Part shown: piece after piece, positions 2,144 to 34,387 of the stretch
How positions within the stretch are numbered: position 1 is the stretch's first letter
Layout: every line of letters starts with the position of its first letter
Virus record (IMG/VR): IMGVR_UViG_3300015615_000196
Coordinates: 160,001 to 224,000 of that record
DNA length: 64,000 nt
Source: a virus
Taxonomy: Duplodnaviria; Caudoviricetes
Strand: one strand, 5' to 3'
Made by a program: the position numbers and the translations under genes
Notes under the pieces: model-generated
Told to the model about the DNA's origin: nothing
Seen by the model: the letters and a program-made list of their open reading frames with translations, nothing else
Databases searched by the model: none

Positions 2144-4651
2144 ATGGCAAAAAAGGTCAACAAAGGCGATTTCGACAAGAATGTAAACGACCAAATCAGG
2201 GGGTACAACACACTCATTGATCTTCAAAAAAGAGAATTGAGCGGGTTGAGTCATATCTTCGACCTTGAAGCACAACGTGTCAAGCAACAACTCTCCCTTC
2301 AACAAGCTGAGAACGAACGAAATGTCCGTATGCAAAACTATATGGACTTGCAGCAAAAAGCTGCACAAGGTCAAGCGACCATCAGCAAGGCTACGTTGAC
2401 TGCAATTGAAAAACAACTCAAGAAAGAAACTGATCGTATCAAAGTTTTGAAGACTCAAGAAAAAATCTTGAGCACAATCTCGAAGATGGGATTCGGTAAT
2501 CTCCAAAACTTTATCGCAGAATTAAACAAACTTAACGTATTCAACGACAAACCAATTCGTGAAGCAATTCAGGAAATGGGATTCGGTGCTGAGAAGGGCC
2601 AATTGATCCGTCAAGCATTTTACGAAGCTGCTCCGAAGGCTGCACAATTGGGTGCATCAATGAAAGAGTTGGCTGAGATTCAAAGATCGTATACGGAAGA
2701 ATCAGGTCGTGCACTCGCATTCACTGGTAAACAACTTACAGATGTGACTGAAATTGCAAAGGGAACAAGACTCGGTGTAACCGAAGCTGGTAAACTTGCA
2801 GCACAGTTTGAACTTCTCGGTGTGAACACGGCAACTGCAAAAGATGCAATTCAAGGAATCGTAGACTCTTCTGAAAGAATGGGAGTAAACGTAAATAAGG
2901 TTTTGAAAGTCGTTAGCGGTAACTTCAAGCAACTCAACACGTTCGCCTTCAAAGAAGGTGTGAAGGGTATGGCGAAGATGGCACAATACGCTGAGAAATT
3001 CAAAGTTGATTTCAACGACTCAATCAATAGTGCTGGTCAAGCAAGAACACTTGAAGGTGCAATCGAAATGGCTGCACAACTTCAAACATTGGGAGGTGAA
3101 TTTACAAAGTCCGATCCATTCGAACTTTTCCATCTTTCACGTAACGACCCGGCTAAGTTCACACAGAAGTTGAACGAAATGACGAAGGGCATGGCCCAAC
3201 TTGTTAAGACCGCAGACGGATTCCAATTCCAAGTTTCACCTATGGATTTGGATAGACTTCGTGTTGCTGCTGAGGCAACTGGTCAGAGTTTCGATAATCT
3301 TGTTCAGCAAGCCCAAAGAATGGGTGAGATTCAAGCAATGAACCGTCAAATGGCAGGAACTGCTTTCAGCAAACAAGATCGTGAACTCATTCAGTCAATG
3401 GCAAAACTTGATACCAAGTCAGGTATCTACAAAGTATTAGGTAAAGACATCAATAAACTTTCTCAACAAGAAATTGAATCGTTGAAGATTCAACAGAACA
3501 CGTTGAAACAAAGAGCGGAAGCATCGCAAACTTTCGATGAAAAATTCCAAAACACAATTGAGTCGATGAAGTTAACACTTCTTCCGATTCTTGATGGGAT
3601 CAATGCCGTGTTCGATACAATCCATCCATACTTGAAAGGTATTGCTGATTGGATGGGATCAATGCCGAAGTGGATGAAGAGCGGACTTGGTTTCGCTGGA
3701 TTACTTGTTGGTGGTGGCGTACTTCTTGGTAAAGCTGCTGCTGCATTCAAAGCAATTCCATTCCTCGGAAACTTAATCGGAGGTGGTGCTGGTAAAGTTG
3801 CGACATCTGCTGGCGGTGGTGTTGCCTCTGCTTTAGGTGGAGGTGGCGGGGCTGCTGGTGGTGGTAGTTTCGGGGCTGGTGCAGGTAAGGGTGCAGGGGT
3901 CGGTCTGGCTGCTGCCGGAATAGGGGCAGGTATTGGTGTCGCGGCTGTAGGAATTGCGAAATTGGCCGATTCTATGGCAAAATTGAACGATAAACAGGTA
4001 GATGCCCTTAAAACCATAGGCATGACTTTGGCCATTACATTCCCTCTTGCAGCAATCGGAATTGGTATCGTAGCTGCTGTGGCTGCTCCTGCAACTCCGG
4101 TATTGCTGGCTCTCGGTGCTGCCGTATTTTTGGTTGGTGCTGCTGTGGGTATTGCTGCTGCCGGAATTGGTTATATGGCTCAAGGATTTTCAACATTGTT
4201 GACATCTGCTGAACCTGAAAAAGTATTCGCACTTGCTGCTGGAATTTATGCACTCGGTGGAGCAATGATGGCTCTCGGTGCAGGTAGCATTGTCTCGTTG
4301 TTTACTGGTGGAGGTGTTCTTGCTGAACTTGCAATTGTTGCAGCACTCGCACCTCAATTGAACAAAGTCGGAGAATCATTCAAAAATATTGGTGCAGTAC
4401 TCAATGCAAATCCTGAGTCAATGCAGAGATTCAAAGAAACATTGGATTCAATCTCCAACTTCAAAGCCAACAGTGGTATCTCTGAGTTGAAAGGATTGTT
4501 TGAGAAGCCATTGAAGGTTGAATTTGCTGATAAGAACGTTTCAATGAATATCGATATTTCACTTGAAGTAGATTCTGATGTTCTTGCTAAGAAGACAGCT
4601 AAGAAGATTGTTGTTCTACACAATGATCAACAACAGGGTAGAGCAAGTTAA
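2144..4651 (+). CDS. Tape measure protein
   Basis: 835 aa, helical Ala/Gln/Lys-rich N-terminal half, Gly/Ala-rich hydrophobic segments in the C-terminal half; between tail chaperone and baseplate genes. Confidence 0.85.
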   Translation: MAKKVNKGDFDKNVNDQIRGYNTLIDLQKRELSGLSHIFDLEAQRVKQQLSLQQAENERNVRMQNYMDLQQKAAQGQATISKATLTAIEKQLKKETDRIKVLKTQEKILSTISKMGFGNLQNFIAELNKLNVFNDKPIREAIQEMGFGAEKGQLIRQAFYEAAPKAAQLGASMKELAEIQRSYTEESGRALAFTGKQLTDVTEIAKGTRLGVTEAGKLAAQFELLGVNTATAKDAIQGIVDSSERMGVNVNKVLKVVSGNFKQLNTFAFKEGVKGMAKMAQYAEKFKVDFNDSINSAGQARTLEGAIEMAAQLQTLGGEFTKSDPFELFHLSRNDPAKFTQKLNEMTKGMAQLVKTADGFQFQVSPMDLDRLRVAAEATGQSFDNLVQQAQRMGEIQAMNRQMAGTAFSKQDRELIQSMAKLDTKSGIYKVLGKDINKLSQQEIESLKIQQNTLKQRAEASQTFDEKFQNTIESMKLTLLPILDGINAVFDTIHPYLKGIADWMGSMPKWMKSGLGFAGLLVGGGVLLGKAAAAFKAIPFLGNLIGGGAGKVATSAGGGVASALGGGGGAAGGGSFGAGAGKGAGVGLAAAGIGAGIGVAAVGIAKLADSMAKLNDKQVDALKTIGMTLAITFPLAAIGIGIVAAVAAPATPVLLALGAAVFLVGAAVGIAAAGIGYMAQGFSTLLTSAEPEKVFALAAGIYALGGAMMALGAGSIVSLFTGGGVLAELAIVAALAPQLNKVGESFKNIGAVLNANPESMQRFKETLDSISNFKANSGISELKGLFEKPLKVEFADKNVSMNIDISLEVDSDVLAKKTAKKIVVLHNDQQQGRAS

Positions 4652-5101: not shown

Positions 5102-8020
5102 ATGGCAAACATCCGTACAAATTCAGAATATGATCAAATTCGTAACGCTTTAACAGCAAGAAACCTGTTTACGCCCACGAATCCGTATCAAATCGACAGT
5201 CCAAGACTTGTTACTGCAATCAATAGCATTGCAGGTTTGATACCGGGAAAGTCATTTGACATCACGAACACGGTCATCGGGAGACTTGCGGGGCCAAATA
5301 CACCAATTGCACAGATTGGTCTTCAACAGTACAGTAAGCACTTGGCGCAGAGCGTTACAAGCTATGCAATCTCTGATGCACTTCCTGCTGTAAATTTAAG
5401 AAATCTTTTCGATGGTGATCCGACAACGAGATTGCTTACCAAGAAAGAAGACTATCGAATCACAAGAGACGAAACGAAGACATCGATTGGTAGAATCATT
5501 GAAGACATCACCAATCAAAGTCCGAAGTTATCGAACAGTGTTTTCACTGGCGTAGGTAACTTAGCACCGTTTGATAAAACCCCGAATCAGTTTGATTACA
5601 TTCGAAACACAGGTAAGGGACAATTGAATCAATACTATGGTTCAATCGGCAAGAATTTATACATTCAGACGAGCGAAGATTTTATTGCTGTTGCTTCTGA
5701 TCAGGGTTATAAAATCAACAAGGTTACAAAGACATTGTTGAACAAGACATTCTTCCCTACTAATGATCCAGATAATTTTCCGTTCGGTCAAGATGCGAGT
5801 GATGACGTGCGTTCTGAAATCGTATTGTTCAGAGAAACAAGTCCTGAGCAAAGAATTTCTGAATACGGTAGCAATGCAACGACTACGGCAATGGGTAAGG
5901 CCAAGAAGACGCAGTTGCCGAACAAAGCACAGAACTTACCTAATCAGGAACGCGATGATGATTTTGAATTCGAGACAACTGGTTTCGGATTTGTTGAAGA
6001 CACGAGCAACCAAATTATTTGGGGTCGTGATGAAGATTTTGCAAACAAGTACGGTGTACGTGCCGGAGCATTGCTTTACACCAAAGGTTTATTGCAAGCA
6101 AGAGGTGCAAGAGCGTATTTTGATCAAACCAAAAAGAAATATACTGCCCGTGATGGTAGTTTGATGTACAATGGTTCTCCGTTGACCAGAGAAATCGATG
6201 GAACGGTTAATCGTAGCAGACAGCATACAGTGCTTGATCCGTACAACAACTATGCGAAGGCAATTCGATTCACGGGTAACAGCGTTTACAACGCACCGTC
6301 TGAATCAGTAATCAATAAGACAGTAATTCCAAAATTCCATCCGATAGTTAAGTCGAACAAGGAAGTTGACAATACAAACATGATGTTCTCGATTGAGAAC
6401 TTGGCGTATGTGTTGAATGACAAAGGTTATCTCGGTGATCACAAGGGTACAAAAGTACCGATTAGTGAAGTCGGCCCAAGCAAAGGACGTTTGATGTGGT
6501 TTGCACCTTACAATGTTGAGGTGAATGAAACTGCAATGGCAAAATATGAAACAACACAGTTCATTGGACGAAGCGAACCGTTGTATACGTATCAATCATC
6601 GGAAAGAACAGCAAGACTTTCTTTCAAGTTGATTGTTGACTACCCGCCACAAGTTGACGGACAGTCGCATGGTGACATTTCAAAGTTCTTTGCATTCGGT
6701 GGTAAGTTCAACGCAAGTGATTTGAATAACGTTGACATTGACAAAGAACAAGCTAAGTTGAAAGACTTAGAAGCACAGCACGATGCAATCAAGGAAACAG
6801 AAACGTTGACACCGCCTCAAGATTTGAAAGTTGGTGATCCAGTTAAATTCTATTTCCACAATGACGGTCGTGATGTAAAGTTTGATGTTGACAATGGATA
6901 CGAGAATGGAAATCCTTCATCGAGTGGGGATAGTACCAACTATGGATTGAACCAACCTTTCCTTAATGACGTAAACACTCTTATCACGCAAATCTTAAAT
7001 CCAACAACCGCGAAATACTATTCATTAAGTTTTCTTGGTAGTGCAAGTAGATTGTATTACGATAAAACATTGCAAGCTGGTTACAACAAGCAATTAGGTT
7101 TGGATCGTGCAAAGAGTCTTCAACAATACATCGAAAAAATATTTGCAACTGCCAACAACGGATTGACTTTCGCAAAGGCAGGAGTAAAAGTAGCAATCAA
7201 CACGATTGGTTCTGACACAGGATCAACGGCAGGTGCACTCACAGCAAACATTTCAAAGAAACCAGTAAAGGAAGAAAGATATGCTGTGGTACGTGTTTCT
7301 GCAAGTGGTGTTCAAGAGAAGAAGACAATTCCGCTCACACCAAGTCAAGTAGCACAGAAGGCAGTTCTTGAAGATCAGATCAACAAAACAAAGGAACTTA
7401 TCAATCAAGCATCGAAAGTTCAGAGTGACGAAAGATTTTTCAATCCGATTAAGAGAAGCGATAGAGCATTGAGAGGTTTTGAGGCAATGAAAAAAATCAT
7501 CTTCTCACCTGCCTTTCACTCACAGACACCGGAAGACTTCCATAGACGATTAACGTTCTTACATCAGTGTACAAGACAAGGTAACTCTGTCATCAACACG
7601 TCAACTACACAGTCAGGAATTGCTGCACCAATAAATTCAGTATTTGGTCGTCCACCAATTTGTATCTTGAGACTTGGTGATATGTTTCACAGTAAAGTGG
7701 TAATTGAAACAGTCGATTTCGATTTCTCGGAATCAGTATGGGATGTGAATCCAGAAGGTATGGGTATGCAGTTTATGATTGCAGACGTTACGCTTTCAAT
7801 GAAGATCATTGGTGGTCAGTCGTTGAAGAGTGCAATTGATGTCATCCAGAACGCAGAGAGTTTCAACTACTATGCAAATTCAACTTACTTCGTCAACGAT
7901 GTTTATCGTTATGCACGTAAAGTGGAAGAAGCACAGACCCAAGCAAATGAAACATTGTTGAATGCAAAACAGAAGGCACGTTTCGGAAATAACACGAATG
8001 GAAGCGGAGACAACATTTAA
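5102..8020 (+). CDS. Baseplate / tail-tube-initiator-like protein with an inserted OmpA-like domain
   Basis: ATG 5102 follows TATTTAT (the track's 5039 start is less likely). IGRSEPLYTYQSSER and PPICILRLGDMF..WD resemble contractile-tail tube-initiator motifs; GSAS...NKQLGLDRAKSL resembles the OmpA peptidoglycan-binding motif. Confidence 0.6.
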   Translation: MANIRTNSEYDQIRNALTARNLFTPTNPYQIDSPRLVTAINSIAGLIPGKSFDITNTVIGRLAGPNTPIAQIGLQQYSKHLAQSVTSYAISDALPAVNLRNLFDGDPTTRLLTKKEDYRITRDETKTSIGRIIEDITNQSPKLSNSVFTGVGNLAPFDKTPNQFDYIRNTGKGQLNQYYGSIGKNLYIQTSEDFIAVASDQGYKINKVTKTLLNKTFFPTNDPDNFPFGQDASDDVRSEIVLFRETSPEQRISEYGSNATTTAMGKAKKTQLPNKAQNLPNQERDDDFEFETTGFGFVEDTSNQIIWGRDEDFANKYGVRAGALLYTKGLLQARGARAYFDQTKKKYTARDGSLMYNGSPLTREIDGTVNRSRQHTVLDPYNNYAKAIRFTGNSVYNAPSESVINKTVIPKFHPIVKSNKEVDNTNMMFSIENLAYVLNDKGYLGDHKGTKVPISEVGPSKGRLMWFAPYNVEVNETAMAKYETTQFIGRSEPLYTYQSSERTARLSFKLIVDYPPQVDGQSHGDISKFFAFGGKFNASDLNNVDIDKEQAKLKDLEAQHDAIKETETLTPPQDLKVGDPVKFYFHNDGRDVKFDVDNGYENGNPSSSGDSTNYGLNQPFLNDVNTLITQILNPTTAKYYSLSFLGSASRLYYDKTLQAGYNKQLGLDRAKSLQQYIEKIFATANNGLTFAKAGVKVAINTIGSDTGSTAGALTANISKKPVKEERYAVVRVSASGVQEKKTIPLTPSQVAQKAVLEDQINKTKELINQASKVQSDERFFNPIKRSDRALRGFEAMKKIIFSPAFHSQTPEDFHRRLTFLHQCTRQGNSVINTSTTQSGIAAPINSVFGRPPICILRLGDMFHSKVVIETVDFDFSESVWDVNPEGMGMQFMIADVTLSMKIIGGQSLKSAIDVIQNAESFNYYANSTYFVNDVYRYARKVEEAQTQANETLLNAKQKARFGNNTNGSGDNI

Positions 8021-29523: not shown

Positions 29524-30609
29524 ATGAGCGAAAAATCAATTATCAACGTAAAGCAAGTTGACTTTACGAAGGAACCTATTTTCTTTGGAGAAAAATTGAA
29601 TCTCCAACGGTATGATCGTTTCAAATACGAGAATATCTTCGGCATGTTCAAAAAACAAATGGGATTCTTTTGGAGACCAGAAGAAATTGCATTGGGCGGG
29701 AAGGAACGTGGCGACTACAATTCGTTGACTGATCACCAGAAGTTCATCTTCACAAAAAATTTGGGCTACCAGATTTTATTGGACAGTGTTCAGAGCCGGG
29801 GTATCTCGAATCTGTTGGAAAATTGTTCAAATCCAGAAGTTGAGGCATTCGCCAAGATATGGGAATTCTATGAAACCCTGCACTCCTACTCCTACACATA
29901 TATTATAAAGAATGTGTACTCAAATCCGAGTGAGGTGTTTGATCAAATTCTGGTAGATGAAGAAATTATCAAGCGCACAACGTCCGTGACCAAGTACTAC
30001 GATGCGTTGATCAATTCCATTTCAAATGGGAACGCCACCGAATACAGCCAGAAGAAAGCATTGTACCTGACTTTGATGTCGATCAATATTCTTGAGGGCA
30101 TTCGATTCTATGTAAGTTTCGCTTGCTCGTTCTCATTTGCAGAAAACAAGAAAATGGAAGGTAATGCCAAAATTATTAGTTTCATCGCCCGTGACGAAAA
30201 CTTGCATTTGGGCTTTACTCAGTTCTTGATCAAATTACTCCGTACCGATCCATCGGAAGGCTTCACTCAAGTAGCGAAAGACTGTGAAAAAATCGTCTAC
30301 GGTATGTTTGAGGATGCTGCAAAAGAAGAGATCGAATGGGCAGAATATCTTTTCAAAGATGGCTCATTATTAGGACTTAACGCTGAAATCTTAACGCAAT
30401 ACATGAAGTGGTTGACCAACCAAAGAATGAAGGCAATAGGATTGAAGCCAATGTTCGACCAAGCAAACAATCCGATCAACTGGATGCGCAATTGGATTGA
30501 TTCTAAAGCAGTTCAGAATGCACCACAAGAAACGGAGATCGAATCGTATGTTGTTGGTTCAGTGAAAAACGACTTGGATAGTGCCGATTTCTCGGACTTC
30601 AAACTTTAA
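29524..30609 (+). CDS. nrdB: Ribonucleotide reductase class Ia beta subunit
   Basis: FFWRPEE, LDSVQ, ETLHSYSY, LEGIRFYVSF, RDENLH, APQETE. Confidence 0.97.
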   Translation: MSEKSIINVKQVDFTKEPIFFGEKLNLQRYDRFKYENIFGMFKKQMGFFWRPEEIALGGKERGDYNSLTDHQKFIFTKNLGYQILLDSVQSRGISNLLENCSNPEVEAFAKIWEFYETLHSYSYTYIIKNVYSNPSEVFDQILVDEEIIKRTTSVTKYYDALINSISNGNATEYSQKKALYLTLMSINILEGIRFYVSFACSFSFAENKKMEGNAKIISFIARDENLHLGFTQFLIKLLRTDPSEGFTQVAKDCEKIVYGMFEDAAKEEIEWAEYLFKDGSLLGLNAEILTQYMKWLTNQRMKAIGLKPMFDQANNPINWMRNWIDSKAVQNAPQETEIESYVVGSVKNDLDSADFSDFKL

Positions 30610-30702
30610 GTGAAATTTTTTACTGTTTTTTATAACCTTTTATAGAAAACTTCGTATTTATCTTTACCCTCAAAAAAAAGTTGAAAAATTTTTGATGGGG
30701 GC

Positions 30703-30732
30703 TTGACAAAGAGAAAAGTATTAGTACCTTTG
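30703..30732 (+). promoter_or_regulatory. Bacteroidota sigma-A-type promoter for the ncRNA island
   Basis: TTG at 30703, 19 nt spacer, TACCTTTG at 30725-30732 (TAnnTTTG). Confidence 0.65.
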
Positions 30733-30739
30733 TCCTCCC

Positions 30740-30777
30740 GTCCCGATCAAAAGGGACAAACAAAACGTTCTTTAAAA
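30740..30777 (+). promoter_or_regulatory. boxB-like hairpin plus boxA-like antitermination element
   Basis: GTCCC/GGGAC hairpin then CGTTCTTTAAAA (30766-30777); second copy CGTTCTTTAAAG at 31957. Confidence 0.5.
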
Positions 30778-30783
30778 TCTTAA

Positions 30784-31598
30784 AAATATGGGCTGCTTGA
30801 AGTCCATAAGATAAATCCAGCAATGGATATAAAGGGGGTGTGGTAGTAACGCCATACTTTCGATCCCTGACCGCAAGGAAAGGGATACAGTCAAGCAAGC
30901 ACACCGTTTGGTGTTTCTTTGGATCAGTCGCAAGGCTGGTTCTCCTGTGTTGGAGGTAAACTCCATCATGGGTCTGAAAGGGCAACTGCCAGTAGGGAGA
31001 GACATTAAGCCTGACTACGGAAGTCAGGATAAATCCAGAAATGGAAGATCAGGAATGTGTAGATCAATCGGTCTGAACTCCGCAAGAGCGTAGGGCTGGT
31101 GTCATTTAGTGTTGGTCAGATGGTCAGAGTAAAATCCCCGTCCCGGTGCTAAACGTAAGCCGCAAGCCACAGAAGGTTGTTTGGTATTGGCTACTCAAAA
31201 GGTAGTTAGCCGAAGTCTCAGCCACATCCTTCAAAGTCCGTACACAATCACACATGGTCTTAGAAACCATTTGCCATTTAAGCAAACTTGTAACAAAAGA
31301 ACAAGTGCTGAGACGTTAGAGCAGAAAGTCGCATACCACTGATGCAACATACAGTGGTGGTTGATCCTCAAGATTGGCCATATGATACGACTTGTTGTTG
31401 GAAGGCATCTTCCTTAGCTTGCTATGAAAGGAGTAGGGCAGTGATGGGCGTAATTGAAAATGCTTTAACGAGAACGATTGGTCTCCGAAAGAGACTTGCG
31501 ATTGTAGCAGACGTTCCGCAAGGGGCGTGGATACGAAGCGAACCGAAAGGATAATGCTTCTAAGGTGCTACTGTTATGCTGTAATCTCAAGCATATTT
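30784..31598 (+). ncRNA. Large structured ncRNA, GOLLD-like (~810 nt)
   Basis: No credible ORF; many GCAA/GAAA-capped hairpins; long-range pairs GTCTCAGC(31215)/GCTGAGAC(31307) and AAATATG(30784)/CATATTT(31592); CTCAAAAGG, TAATTGAAAA and GTAATCTCA segments recalled from GOLLD-class RNAs; next to a tRNA-like gene. Confidence 0.7.
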
Positions 31599-31734
31599 CG
31601 AACATAAATCACGGGAGTGATTATGATTCGAAAACAAAAAATCAGTACATCGATTTATCGGTGTATCTCTGGACAGAAATCATGAGAATGATGTATGCCC
31701 GGAACAAATCCTCGGTTTGAAACCGGGGTAAACT

Positions 31735-31806
31735 GGATTTGTAGCTTAATTATTAGAGCGGTTCCCGTTGAGGGAATAGATAGGGGTGTGAATCCCTTCG
31801 AGTCCA
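31735..31806 (+). tRNA. Atypical tRNA / tRNA-like RNA, apparent anticodon TTG (Gln)
   Basis: Acceptor GGATTTG/CGAGTCC, D-arm GCTT/GAGC, anticodon arm GTTCC-CGTTGAG-GGAAT, T-arm AGGGG-TGTGAAT-CCCTT; G33 and non-canonical T-loop; no encoded CCA. Confidence 0.6.
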
Positions 31807-31884
31807 CACAAGATTTTGTCGTCCAAACTACAGGACACCACCCTACAGGTGGAAATTTGGGAGTGTACCCCTTCAAAGTCTCAC

Positions 31885-31955
31885 AACTGGCTATTAACTG
31901 AGTTACTTCAACTTTGTTCTATAAACAAAACAACCACTTGGTTTGCTTTCCAGTT
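31885..31955 (+). ncRNA. Structured RNA repeat, unit 1
   Basis: AACTGG-CTAT-t-AACTGAGT-TACTTC-[TTTGTT/AACAAA hairpin]-ACAACC-ACTTGGTT-tgc-TTT-CCAGTT. Confidence 0.7.
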
Positions 31956-32013
31956 TCGTTCTTTAAAGTATGTTTTGGTCAAGCCTCTTCCCCTTGTGGG
32001 AACGTAACCAAAA

Positions 32014-32095
32014 TTTGTGGCTATGGTGTAAGTTACTTCCGCTCGAAAGAGCACCTGATGGTTAATCAAGAACTACTGACACTGATTTCCACAAA
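32014..32095 (+). ncRNA. Structured RNA repeat, unit 2
   Basis: TTTGTGG-CTAT-GGTGTAAGT-TACTTC-[GCTC-GAAA-GAGC and TGAT/ATCA hairpins]-AGAACT-ACTGACACT-ga-TTT-CCACAAA. Confidence 0.7.
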
Positions 32096-32100
32096 CCCAT

Positions 32101-32167
32101 ATTCTGGCTATTGATCCGGTTACTTCAACTACAATTGGTAACAACTACCGTTTCGCCTTTCCAGAAT
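32101..32167 (+). ncRNA. Structured RNA repeat, unit 3
   Basis: ATTCTGG-CTAT-TGATCCGGT-TACTTC-[short hairpin]-ACAACT-ACCGTTTCG-cc-TTT-CCAGAAT. Confidence 0.7.
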
Positions 32168-32209
32168 TATTATTTTGATGTGATTTAAAATCTGTAAAGA
32201 CCAAATACC

Positions 32210-34387
32210 ATGAACACTATCAAAGAAAAAACCGCAAAGACCTCAGTCGCAACTGCTACGGCAATGACGAAGGCACAAATCGCTCTTCAAAGAGGATTTT
32301 TAGTACCTACAGGTGGACTTGTTGCTCCGGTGAGCAAGCAAGAACGATTCACCATGCAAGCTGAATTGATGCAGTTCGGATACATGTTGTCCGAAGATGC
32401 ACTTGGCGTTGTAACCATCGAATGGTTCAACGAAGTAATGCCGTTCTTAAAAAGAACGTTGGGCGTAGGTGCGTACATGGGTGCGTACATGCCATTCTAC
32501 AAGAACTTCCCGACTCAGGTAATGGAGTTGAGTCACGTTGAGTTGTATCTCAATGCGGTCATGCATTACTGGTCATTGGGTACGTGGGAACCTGCCTACG
32601 AACTCCGTGAAAGAGGCTTCGCGTTTGAAAACACGAAGTTCACAACTATCAAGTTGGGAACAGAAGATCAGTTCAATGCGATCTTCACGACATTGGTGTC
32701 GATCAACCAGTCTATTACTGAAAACGACAAGAAAGTTGTTGAGTGGTTCATCCAGAACTATTCACACAGCTTGATATTCCCGAAGACCATCCCGTTCAAG
32801 GAAACTCTTTGTATGCTTGCCGGACACGGCTTGAATGTTCCAATTACGTCTGCAACGGACGTATTGAGAATTGCCGTATACCTTTCAGGTGGTGACATTT
32901 CATTGCCAGCCGTACCACGAATAACGGTGAAGGAAGTACGTCCGGGAAGAAAGGAAGTGTTCTTCCGTAACCTTTTGAACTCGCAGACAGAAGCGAGAGA
33001 AAAGTTCAAGTTCAAGAACTTGAGCCGTGCAAAGAGAAAGTATTTGCTTTCATTGCTTGAAGGAACCAAGATCGACTTGGGCGAAATGAAATTGCGTCTT
33101 GAAAGATGGATTCGTCTTGGCGAAGTTCTTCACGTAGGTGAATTCAAGAACCGTTTCCCGAAAGCATACGAAGCGTTCTACGCTATCCGTAATGCTGCGG
33201 ACGAAATCCGTACATTCGAGTCTACGCTTGAAGAAGCGTTTACCAATGCTTACATCACTGGTGGTGAAGCAGAACTTAACACGGCCTTGAATCTCTTGTC
33301 AAAGAGACCGGGTATGTTTGCAAGAAGACTTGACTGGTTGTTGAGAACGTTCGACCCGAACGTTGTTCTTCCAGCCTTCAAGAAGATTGCCATGAAGGTA
33401 AGCAAGAAAGTATTGTGGGAACTCTACAATCACTTCATCAAGCGTGATACTGTGTCACCGAGAATGGTGATGATCAAGGGTAAGAAAGCAACCAAAGTTA
33501 CTTTGGATGCATTGCCAGCAATGAGCAAAATCTTGATCACCAAGATTCAGGGTATGATCTTGGAATGTTTGGGACAACACTTCGCACAACTTGATAAGTT
33601 GGGTAAGGTGTATGTTGACGAACGTTTGAAGAAGATTCCGTTGCCTACGGCAATGAGAAGTGTGAACACTTCGGTGAAGACCTACATGAGAGGTACGAGA
33701 GTACCATTCAATGACAATGCAAAGGTTATCAGACCTTATATTCACTGGTTCGACCAGTATGGTCACGAAGACCTTGACTTGAGCGTTGCATTCTACGATG
33801 CACACTTGAGAGGTAAGGATCATATCTCGTACACGAATTTGAAGATTCAACATCTTAACTCATGCCACTCAGGTGACGTGAGACACAGACAAGGTGCGTG
33901 TGCAGAATACGTGGACATTGATATTGCTGCTTGCTTACAGCACGGCATCAGATATGCAATGGTACAGGTGCATAACTTCCAGAACAGACCAATGCACACG
34001 ATGAAAGACTGCGTGTTCGGTTTGATGGAAAGAGAATTCCCGGAATCAAATCCGATCTTCGTCCCGAAGACTATCACCAATGCAGTAGCAGTGGCGAACG
34101 AAAGTTCAACTGTGTGTATTGCAGTGTTGGATTTGAAGGAAAAGGAATACATCTGGCTTGACCTTGAGTTACAATCAAGAGGTTTGGCTAACCTTGAAAG
34201 CACTTCAAGCATGGCTCACAAGCTGATCAAAGGTGCAATCGACAGTGCAATTCTGTCAGTGTACGACTTGTTGTCAATCCATGCTGACGCAAGAGGTGTT
34301 GCAATCCTGAACAAGGAAGCTGCGGATACCGTATTCGAATACGAAGACTTTGTAACAAGCTATGACAAAGTGGCGACTTACATGTAA
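32210..34387 (+). CDS. ROT/TROVE-like helical repeat protein with C-terminal TerD-like domain (Prok-RING_4-associated architecture, RING finger absent)
   Basis: N-terminal GY.LS, PFYKNFP.QV, IPFKET, TDVLR, RPG.FARRLD.LLR; C-terminal TerD-like W...DLDLS, HSGD, GACAEYVDID, LDL...E..WLD. Confidence 0.75.
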   Translation: MNTIKEKTAKTSVATATAMTKAQIALQRGFLVPTGGLVAPVSKQERFTMQAELMQFGYMLSEDALGVVTIEWFNEVMPFLKRTLGVGAYMGAYMPFYKNFPTQVMELSHVELYLNAVMHYWSLGTWEPAYELRERGFAFENTKFTTIKLGTEDQFNAIFTTLVSINQSITENDKKVVEWFIQNYSHSLIFPKTIPFKETLCMLAGHGLNVPITSATDVLRIAVYLSGGDISLPAVPRITVKEVRPGRKEVFFRNLLNSQTEAREKFKFKNLSRAKRKYLLSLLEGTKIDLGEMKLRLERWIRLGEVLHVGEFKNRFPKAYEAFYAIRNAADEIRTFESTLEEAFTNAYITGGEAELNTALNLLSKRPGMFARRLDWLLRTFDPNVVLPAFKKIAMKVSKKVLWELYNHFIKRDTVSPRMVMIKGKKATKVTLDALPAMSKILITKIQGMILECLGQHFAQLDKLGKVYVDERLKKIPLPTAMRSVNTSVKTYMRGTRVPFNDNAKVIRPYIHWFDQYGHEDLDLSVAFYDAHLRGKDHISYTNLKIQHLNSCHSGDVRHRQGACAEYVDIDIAACLQHGIRYAMVQVHNFQNRPMHTMKDCVFGLMEREFPESNPIFVPKTITNAVAVANESSTVCIAVLDLKEKEYIWLDLELQSRGLANLESTSSMAHKLIKGAIDSAILSVYDLLSIHADARGVAILNKEAADTVFEYEDFVTSYDKVATYM

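Follow-up and report, generated by a model that had tools for sequence, protein, structure and literature searches.

A divergent GOLLD RNA in a 362.6-kb jumbo phage and the likeness of its leader to the start of a Bacteroidota rRNA operon

The stretch of DNA analysed here (64,000 nucleotides, hereafter the window) corresponds to bases 160,001-224,000 of a virus record that is complete, with direct terminal repeats, at 362,603 bp, and belongs to an uncultured jumbo phage. All the large genes around the region of interest are on the + strand, and the products of those upstream are the two subunits of ribonucleotide reductase (RNR), preceded in the list by a RecA-like protein, a 5'-3' exonuclease and a helicase of the DnaB-like kind. 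The gene for the second RNR subunit ends at 30609 and the next gene, encoding a protein designated P0001, starts at 32210. Between them are found, in this order and on the same strand, a leader in which a hairpin stands between a candidate promoter and a boxA-like element, a long structured RNA of the GOLLD family, a tRNA-Gln(UUG)-like gene and three small repeated units. The GOLLD RNA is reported to have been described by Weinberg and colleagues and to have been a known family since 2009. The structure of the GOLLD cage was published in 2024-25; the leading idea in the literature is that the cage may act during the lytic phase, in some relation to tRNAs or ribosomes.

A preliminary description of the region had proposed a GOLLD RNA and had named ROOL as the alternative. 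The former assignment was upheld by a covariance-model scan of the whole window against Rfam (Infernal cmscan), in which GOLLD (RF02032) was matched at 31172-31593 on the + strand with 159.8 bits, above the gathering score of 150 (E 6e-43), and along the model from end to end (positions 1-416 of 416). Only one other match in the window was over threshold, namely a tRNA at 31735-31806. ROOL had to be abandoned, since a permissive cmscan rescan of 30550-32300 gave no match to it, nor to any additional Rfam family, at E <= 1. ROOL (RF03087) is similarly a phage RNA of large size and ornate structure that occurs close to tRNAs, and it also forms cages, but its sequence and its secondary structure are different. 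The stretch matched by RF02032 is the 3' domain of the RNA (31172-31593, +), which retains the A-rich UCAAAAG loop (31196-31202), the GUGGAUA motif and the 3'-terminal GUAAUCUCA (31582-31590). RF02032 models the conserved 3' half of GOLLD only, so that the approximately 380 nt upstream needed to be judged separately.

The start of the RNA is marked by the motif GGGCYG...TCCATA, which stands at 30790 in the window and, in 50 other GOLLDs, 796-834 nt before the 3' end; this shared 5' motif gives the RNA a length of 804-809 nt. Among the loci of the same type as that of the window, conservation begins about 25 nt before GGGC and ends a few bases past GUAAUCUCARGC; in 7 related loci it sets in and breaks off sharply. 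The limits first proposed, 30784-31598, are thus modified in part: conservation shifts the start to about 30790 (GGGC), and the 3' end, at about 31593-31598, is more or less kept. The 5' domain (30790-31171, +) is of the divergent subfamily type, and it is recognised by its GGGCYG...TCCATA start, by helix P1 and by covariation. Its first 100 nt or so are common to an alignment of 51 sequences (the window and 50 other full-length GOLLDs) and contain the GGGC/P1-P3 core found at the start of the RNA; in them lie helix P1 and three hairpins, of which the first and the third have GNRA loops. From about nt 100 onward, the window and the mainstream clade can no longer be aligned in the 5' domain, which in the window is about 59 nt longer than in the nearest and shortest relatives.

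For the 5' domain, RNAalifold predicted 88 pairs in an alignment of 7 sequences, with 96.9% of the cells paired. In 30 of these 88 both partners vary and the pairing is preserved, while column shuffles gave 12.5 +/- 2.4 and none of 500 was as high, a control that overstates the significance because the tested structure came from the same 7 related sequences; when the partner columns were slid by 1-3 positions, the pairs changed on both sides were 2-6. Individual hairpins are fully rewritten with their loops kept, as in the case of CCTGACT/AGTCAGG in the window versus TTCCATC/GGTGGAA in the relative L133. The minimum free energy has a z-score of -3.0, and 0 of 20 shuffles were as stable. No conserved open reading frame was found, since all 8 short ORFs run into stops or frame breaks in at least one of five relatives; none stays open and unsplit in all five. 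The shared core, the conservation in six relatives, the covariation and the lack of a conserved ORF indicate that the 5' half, 30790-31171, is a real RNA.

The five hairpins initially listed are all present in the sequence of the + strand, i.e., TCCA-GCAA-TGGA at 30816-30827, CAGTC-GCAA-GGCTG at 30926-30939, TCCA-GAAA-TGGA at 31035-31046, GTCTC-CGAAA-GAGAC at 31482-31496 and CGTTCC-GCAA-GGGGCG at 31512-31527. As to 31215/31307, the pairing noted there turned out to be a pseudoknot common to the whole family, formed in the window (+ strand) by the 5' strand GTCTCAG (31215-31221) and the 3' strand CTGAGAC (31308-31314), and supported by covariation across 51 GOLLDs, where other letters are found at the same places (TGACGGAC/GTCCGTCA, TGACAGAC/GTCTGTCA, TGTTGGAC/GTCCATCA and GAGATAAC/GTTATCTA). 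This pseudoknot crosses helix P13 and hence cannot appear in the nested structure line of Rfam. As for TGCTTGA at 30794, two partners had been suggested, near 30891 and at 31587. The covariation of P1, which reads GCTTGA/TCAAGC here and GTGTA/TACAC or GTATA/TATAC in other GOLLDs, settles the choice for the former, so that helix P1 consists of 30794-30800 paired with 30891-30897 (+) and the partner at 31587 is discarded.

A further contact between the two domains can be proposed. In the mainstream clade a hairpin loop of the 5' domain, GUGGG/GUAGA, is complementary in 48 of 48 sequences to UCCAC/UCUAC, the junction behind the first hairpin of the 3' domain, and this pairing, found by covariation, joins the 5' and the 3' domain. 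The window has on the + strand a conserved loop, ACGGA (31017-31021), carried by the hairpin with the covarying stem CCTGACT/AGTCAGG, and a candidate partner for it in the junction UCCGU (31237-31241), located after the first hairpin of the 3' domain; GUCCG at this junction is conserved in 7 of 7 window-type sequences. By analogy with the mainstream clade, the loop at 31017-31021 could pair with 31237-31241, and the two contacts would then be equivalent.

GOLLD loci were collected from IMG/VR by means of a pattern of three invariant 3'-domain motifs, and this pattern-selected sample amounts to at least 120 loci, a dozen of which are on contigs of 200-385 kb; a tRNA lies nearby or inside in 40 of the 120. 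Six further loci of the window type were obtained by motif searches and by look-ups of neighbouring genes: L131 (the same as L130), L133, L048 (on the same contig as L125), L123, L124 and L126, the last one being cut by the end of its contig. In other phages the RNA precedes unrelated genes. A metagenome scan with the 21-nt 5' motif also yielded three loci, L127-L129, in which the motif is present and a GOLLD 3' domain was not detectable. A blastn search of 30700-31900 against 50,697 phage records gave no match, as GOLLDs are too diverged for DNA similarity searches; nhmmer with the single sequence found only the closest relative, L048, and a hidden Markov model of the mainstream 3' domain missed most of the diverged GOLLDs in prokaryote assemblies. 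The matches of a 21-base GOLLD pattern over 596 Gb of genome contigs are mostly due to chance (about 160 were expected) and the host range cannot be read from them; the matches tested in Paenibacillus, Alistipes and others were rejected, there being no GOLLD at these places.

The tRNA-Gln(UUG)-like gene lies 141 nt past the GOLLD RNA (31735-31807, +) and was detected both by ARAGORN and by the Rfam tRNA model (46.8 bits). It is non-canonical: in the Rfam alignment, position 33 is occupied by G in place of U and the T loop is atypical. The phage genome encodes 61 tRNAs, nearly all of them in islands 90-140 kb from the GOLLD RNA, and the tRNA-Gln(UUG) stands alone, far from these islands. The phage origin and the adjoining tRNA, which the first description had given as traits of GOLLD RNAs, are borne out by the complete virus record and by this gene. 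In the relatives the tRNA is even closer, since it starts about 5 nt after the end of the GOLLD RNA in L048 and L124 and after 73-77 nt in L123, L131 and L133. No terminator-like site was found on the + strand between the GOLLD RNA and the next gene. The closeness of these tRNAs on the 3' side and the lack of such a site make co-transcription with tRNA-type processing the simplest model. Further downstream, outside the GOLLD RNA, there are three repeated small-RNA-like units, TGGCTA-N8-GTTACTTC (31885-32167, +; 3 matches versus 0.01 expected), and within this stretch, at 31958, a second boxA-like element, GTTCTTTAAAG. Two copies of the small repeat are found at the same place in L002, a locus without GOLLD.

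Upstream of the RNA, the leader shows a recurrent organization. It comprises a candidate promoter of the Bacteroidota housekeeping type, TTG, 19 nt and TACCTTTG (30703-30732, +), which is conserved in L131, L133 and L002; a hairpin, GTCCC-GATCAAAA-GGGAC (30740-30757, +), in a boxB-like position between the promoter and the boxA-like element; and the boxA-like element itself, GTTCTTTAAAA (30767-30777, +), located 12 nt upstream of the point where the conserved RNA begins. The BoxA consensus is GYTCTTTAANA (PMC5725501), and GTTCTTTAAAA matches it exactly. The order is thus promoter, hairpin, consensus boxA match and then a long untranslated RNA. The boxA-like element is conserved in 7 of 7 window-type loci, and at the place of the hairpin other sequences able to form hairpins are found in L131, L133 and the mainstream loci (ATCGGA-AACG-TCCGAT). 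The promoter, the hairpin and the boxA-like element are also present in L002, in which the boxA-like element stands directly before a tRNA-like gene. Two other kinds of start were considered and rejected: a scan with the sigma-70 consensus gave nothing convincing upstream, the conserved element fitting the Bacteroidota type instead, and a 'TATG' start in the style of T4-late or phiKZ-late promoters, at 30787-30790, is replaced by other letters in mainstream GOLLDs.

The same leader is widespread in the family. Among 92 distinct GOLLD loci with 300 nt of upstream sequence, which are related and do not represent independent lineages, GTTCTTT[AG]A[AC] is found upstream in 68, with 0.011 expected per upstream window as estimated from the rest of the same loci. 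The promoter pattern TTG-N17-21-TAnnTTTG precedes 66 of the 92, and both elements are present in the right order in 63. Mainstream leaders consist of promoter, hairpin, ACGTTCTTTGAAA and then 60-100 nt of rather variable sequence. The boxA-like element is also found in the divergent GOLLDs L056, L065 and L077 and in L213 and L247, from prokaryote assemblies; no boxA-like motif was seen within 300 nt of GOLLDs lying in tRNA arrays (L239, L184). Over the whole phage genome the boxA-like 10-mer is only mildly enriched, with 16 occurrences versus 7 expected and a simulation maximum of 15.

With regard to bacterial genes, the same type of promoter precedes the 16S rRNA gene in 4 Bacteroidota genomes, where a related boxA-like element, GTTCTTTAAGA, GTTCATTGAAA (in two genomes) or GATCTTTGAAA, is found 112-165 nt before 16S; Bacteroidota are the presumed host group of the phage. 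In Sphingobacterium the rRNA promoter is followed by a similar TCCC...GGGA hairpin, and the promoter-hairpin stretch resembles that of the window. In the rRNA operon leader, too, a housekeeping promoter, a hairpin and an exact consensus boxA come before a long, untranslated and structured RNA, and in rRNA operons a long RNA is co-transcribed with tRNA, as proposed here. The GOLLD leader therefore looks like the start of a Bacteroidota rRNA operon, having apparently the same build, with the difference that it heads a phage RNA; NusB/NusE would be its putative binding partners. No paper in the searchable literature was found to treat GOLLD together with boxA, antitermination or Nus, and a search with the motif string returned nothing relevant.

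The gene downstream encodes P0001, a protein of 725 amino acids (32210-34387, +) with a helical N-terminal part and a C-terminal part with the TerD fold. It had no Pfam match at E <= 0.01; it belongs to phrog_33734, annotated as of unknown function, and has at least 1637 relatives, many of them on jumbo-sized contigs; neither a PDB sequence search nor the protein atlas assigned it to a family. In the AlphaFold model (pLDDT 82.5), residues 503-673 align with TerD structures (VIA-align: 2qz7_B, Z 14.7, rmsd 2.8, 150 residues aligned; 2kxt, Z 13.8) and Foldseek gives TerD a probability of 1.0, so that the assignment of the predicted C-terminal domain to the TerD beta-sandwich fold is solid, as had been supposed for this neighbour from the beginning. 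The N-terminal part, which was also folded alone for the structure search, gave nothing in Foldseek at E <= 0.001. With VIA-align, the only matches spanning the helical domain are three Ro60 structures, with Z-scores of 5.3-6.7 over 191-247 residues, values in the noise range for helical repeats; the best of them, over residues 154-486 of P0001, are 9l5y_B (Z 6.7, 247 residues) and 2nvo_A (Z 6.3, 240 residues), equally within that range. The resemblance of the modelled P0001 to Ro60/TROVE is weak.

From this neighbourhood came the suggestion that a TROVE-TerD protein could be a clue to the function of the RNA. On a rival reading, GOLLD would serve the Ro60-like/TerD protein encoded downstream as its RNA partner or client, in a phage ribonucleoprotein similar to that of Ro60 with Y RNA. 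P0001 is reminiscent of Ro60 (Rsr) and its Y RNA (PMC4201824, PMC12135203; PDB 2nvo, 9l5y) in being helical, possibly ring-forming, and encoded beside tRNA-like or small structured RNAs, in this case in a phage. The two genes share a strand and no terminator separates them, L131 and L133 retain the same gene order (RNR genes, GOLLD, tRNA and P0001 homologue), and Ro60 structures are the only ones to span the whole helical domain. However, that order is retained in these two closest relatives only, which is what shared descent would give, and a P0001 homologue is found in the flanks of 0 of 120 GOLLD loci, so that the survey proposed at first, of GOLLD loci adjoining TROVE-TerD genes, came out negative. 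Furthermore, the protein is kept without the RNA: G001, whose P0001 homologue is 59% identical, keeps the RNR genes, the tRNA-like elements and the protein but lacks GOLLD throughout its 371.5 kb, and L132, with a homologue 68% identical, has no GOLLD at the locus. Where GOLLD is missing, the small repeat units and the tRNA-like elements stay by the P0001 gene and are likelier partners. The family of P0001 numbers at least 1637 proteins. The Ro60 Z-scores do not exceed the noise expected of helical repeats, TROVE is found by neither Pfam nor Foldseek, and P0001 carries TerD where Ro60 carries vWA; for their part, GOLLD RNAs are about eight times longer than Y RNA and are absent from most loci with a P0001-type protein. 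A partnership of this kind is improbable, and P0001 is no general partner of GOLLD, which removes a tempting false lead.

Two other readings concern the RNA itself. The region might be the remnant of a decaying GOLLD, recognisable as such and no longer functional, considering that its score exceeds the Rfam cut-off by only 10 bits, that its 5' domain is unlike that of the main clade and has about 59 extra nt when compared with the nearest relatives, and that the adjoining tRNA is non-canonical. Against decay stand seven loci of this subtype, which come from a variety of phages and samples and keep the structure by compensatory changes; the complete ones all score 156-174 bits against RF02032, and a score near the cut-off is therefore typical of the subfamily and not a sign of degeneration. 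The universal motifs are intact as well (the UCAAAAG loop, GUGGAUA, the 3' GUAAUCUCA and the pseudoknot), and we regard decay as very unlikely. An even smaller chance, close to nil, is left for the region being some other large structured RNA, either ROOL, named early as an alternative, or a member of an undescribed class, or else a long cis-acting 5' leader of the gene downstream, for which its position ahead of a gene on the same strand would speak. The full GOLLD model is matched while ROOL and the rest of Rfam give nothing at E <= 1 in 30550-32300; between the GOLLD RNA and the P0001 gene stand the tRNA and a further 400 nt of RNA elements; and the same RNA is found before unrelated genes in other phages, just as the P0001 gene occurs without GOLLD.

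The region 30790-31593 (+) is almost certainly a GOLLD RNA of a divergent subfamily. All the GOLLD-defining features that are visible in a sequence are found there, and the locus contains a further GOLLD of a known family and no new kind of element. The RNA shares with GOLLD env-38 and with the family a length of about 800 nt, two domains, GGGC/P1-P3, the pseudoknot, the UCAAAAG loop and the GUAAUCUCA 3' end, and, as other GOLLDs, it is encoded by a phage and adjoins a tRNA. It differs from the main lake clade in that it belongs to a small subfamily (7 loci found) with a 5' domain unalignable past about nt 100, and from the rest of the family in that its only companion is a single odd tRNA, at a distance from the tRNA islands. 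The observed basis comprises the family membership, the extent, the conserved structure, the setting in a phage and beside a tRNA, and the leader motif, which is enriched before GOLLD genes; the explanation as a whole, namely a phage GOLLD gene driven by its leader, processed and cage-forming, is given a probability of about 0.9.

In this explanation of the locus as a GOLLD gene, the RNA polymerase of the presumed host would start at the Bacteroidota-type promoter (30703-30732), and the boxA-like leader (30767-30777) would recruit host Nus factors as it occurs in rRNA operons, allowing the escape from Rho termination and the folding of the RNA during its synthesis. A dependence of the leader on Nus, argued by analogy, has about even odds. 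The transcript would run on into the tRNA-Gln-like gene, and probably further, and the ends of the GOLLD RNA would be cut out by tRNA-type processing, a step that we consider somewhat favoured. The mature RNA would have two domains, of which the 5' one is variable and the 3' one universal. In GOLLD env-38, the one member whose cage is known, cryo-EM has revealed a hollow cage made only of RNA, composed of 14 chains, with the 5' domain as its cap and with L20 with J13/15, L21a and L21b as inter-chain contacts (doi 10.1101/2024.12.08.627333). By analogy with env-38, 14 chains of the RNA of the window would self-assemble to form a closed cage without protein, and RNA-only self-assembly by this divergent member is likely; the same 14-chain cage is not assured, as the 5' domain, which is the cap in env-38, is unalignable past about nt 100. 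GOLLD expression rises at lysis, and a ribosome pull-down has also been described (doi 10.1101/2024.12.08.627333).

From the point of view of the cage, the divergence of the cap-forming 5' domain offers a natural test of which parts of the cage design are essential. In addition, closely related jumbo phages with and without GOLLD at the same spot, i.e., the window phage, L131 and L133 on the one side and L132 and G001, otherwise syntenic, on the other, represent natural 'knock-outs'. The one observation at this locus that might repay experiment is the rRNA-like leader, whose presence in about three quarters of the sampled GOLLD genes suggests a route past Rho termination and a tie to the Nus machinery. 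We tentatively propose, at somewhat less than even odds, that GOLLD genes in general may be expressed from leaders that copy those of rRNA operons, borrowing the antitermination and RNA-chaperone complex of the host Nus factors to make, fold and perhaps assemble the cage RNA. If this is true, the phage leader might also divert the Nus machinery from ribosome synthesis, and GOLLD would acquire its first link to a defined host pathway, one that is directly testable.

The spacer between tRNA-Gln(UUG) and the gene of the 725-aa TerD protein contains three copies of the motif TGGCTA-N8-GTTACTTC, found by motif matching on the plus strand of the window (31888-31909, 32018-32039 and 32105-32126), against 0.01 expected. 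The same location in L002, the locus of a related phage without GOLLD, holds two copies, at about 5801 and 5874, and its spacer is taken up by two tRNA-like elements (5622-5691 and 5721-5792), of which ARAGORN missed the former and detected only the latter, with an anticodon that could not be named. The motif is the mark of repeated small RNA-like units, and it is these units, not GOLLD, that persist beside the TerD gene. The tRNA-Gln(UUG) itself (31735-31807, plus strand) carries a G at position 33, where U is universal, and its T loop reads GUGUGAAUC. Instead of a tRNA used in decoding, this gene may encode a tRNA-like RNA.

As for the 725-aa protein (32210-34387, plus strand), its C-terminal domain has a clear TerD fold, and the sole full-length structural matches of its helical N-terminal part are Ro60 proteins, and these are weak. 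In comparison with Ro60, TerD occupies the C-terminal position of the vWA domain. The family, in which no Pfam domain was found, counts at least 1637 members, mostly on contigs of jumbo-phage size.

Immediately 3' of the GOLLD end lies a long imperfect hairpin, TTCGAACATAAATCAC-GGGA-GTGATTATGATTCGAA (31597-31633, plus strand), which is absent from relatives and could be a processing site. Mainstream GOLLDs (for example those of loci L099 and L094) have a possible pairing between columns 236-241 and 586-591 of the alignment with mainstream loci: in 48 of 48 sequences the loop of a 5'-domain hairpin, GUGGGU or GUAGAU, can base-pair with AUCCAC or AUCUAC in the junction that follows the first hairpin of the 3' domain, and one of the changes is compensatory. 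This pairing could not be matched to any contact described in the cryo-EM study. On L213, a contig from a prokaryote assembly, about 650 nt separate two GOLLD genes (2318-2764 and 3423-3902), and the variable linker of the second contains a tRNA. On L184, another such contig, the GOLLD (5817-6278) has a tRNA within it, and about 15 tRNAs lie in an array behind it. An exact 21-nt 5' motif of the window-type GOLLD was also found on three metagenome contigs (L127, 9909-9929; L128, 3294-3314; L129, 2185-2205), none with a detectable match to the 3' domain; these sites may be chance matches or elements consisting of the 5' domain only.

The whole genome of the phage contains 61 tRNA genes in four islands, located outside the window at 53.8-61.5, 80.9-82.9, 94.6-97.8 and 101.4-103.1 kb. 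Also outside the window, a tRNA with a CUA anticodon (299220-299292, minus strand; "Pyl" in ARAGORN) is, judging by its anticodon, an amber suppressor. Although the window's large ORFs are open under table 11, TAG may therefore be read as sense in some phage genes.
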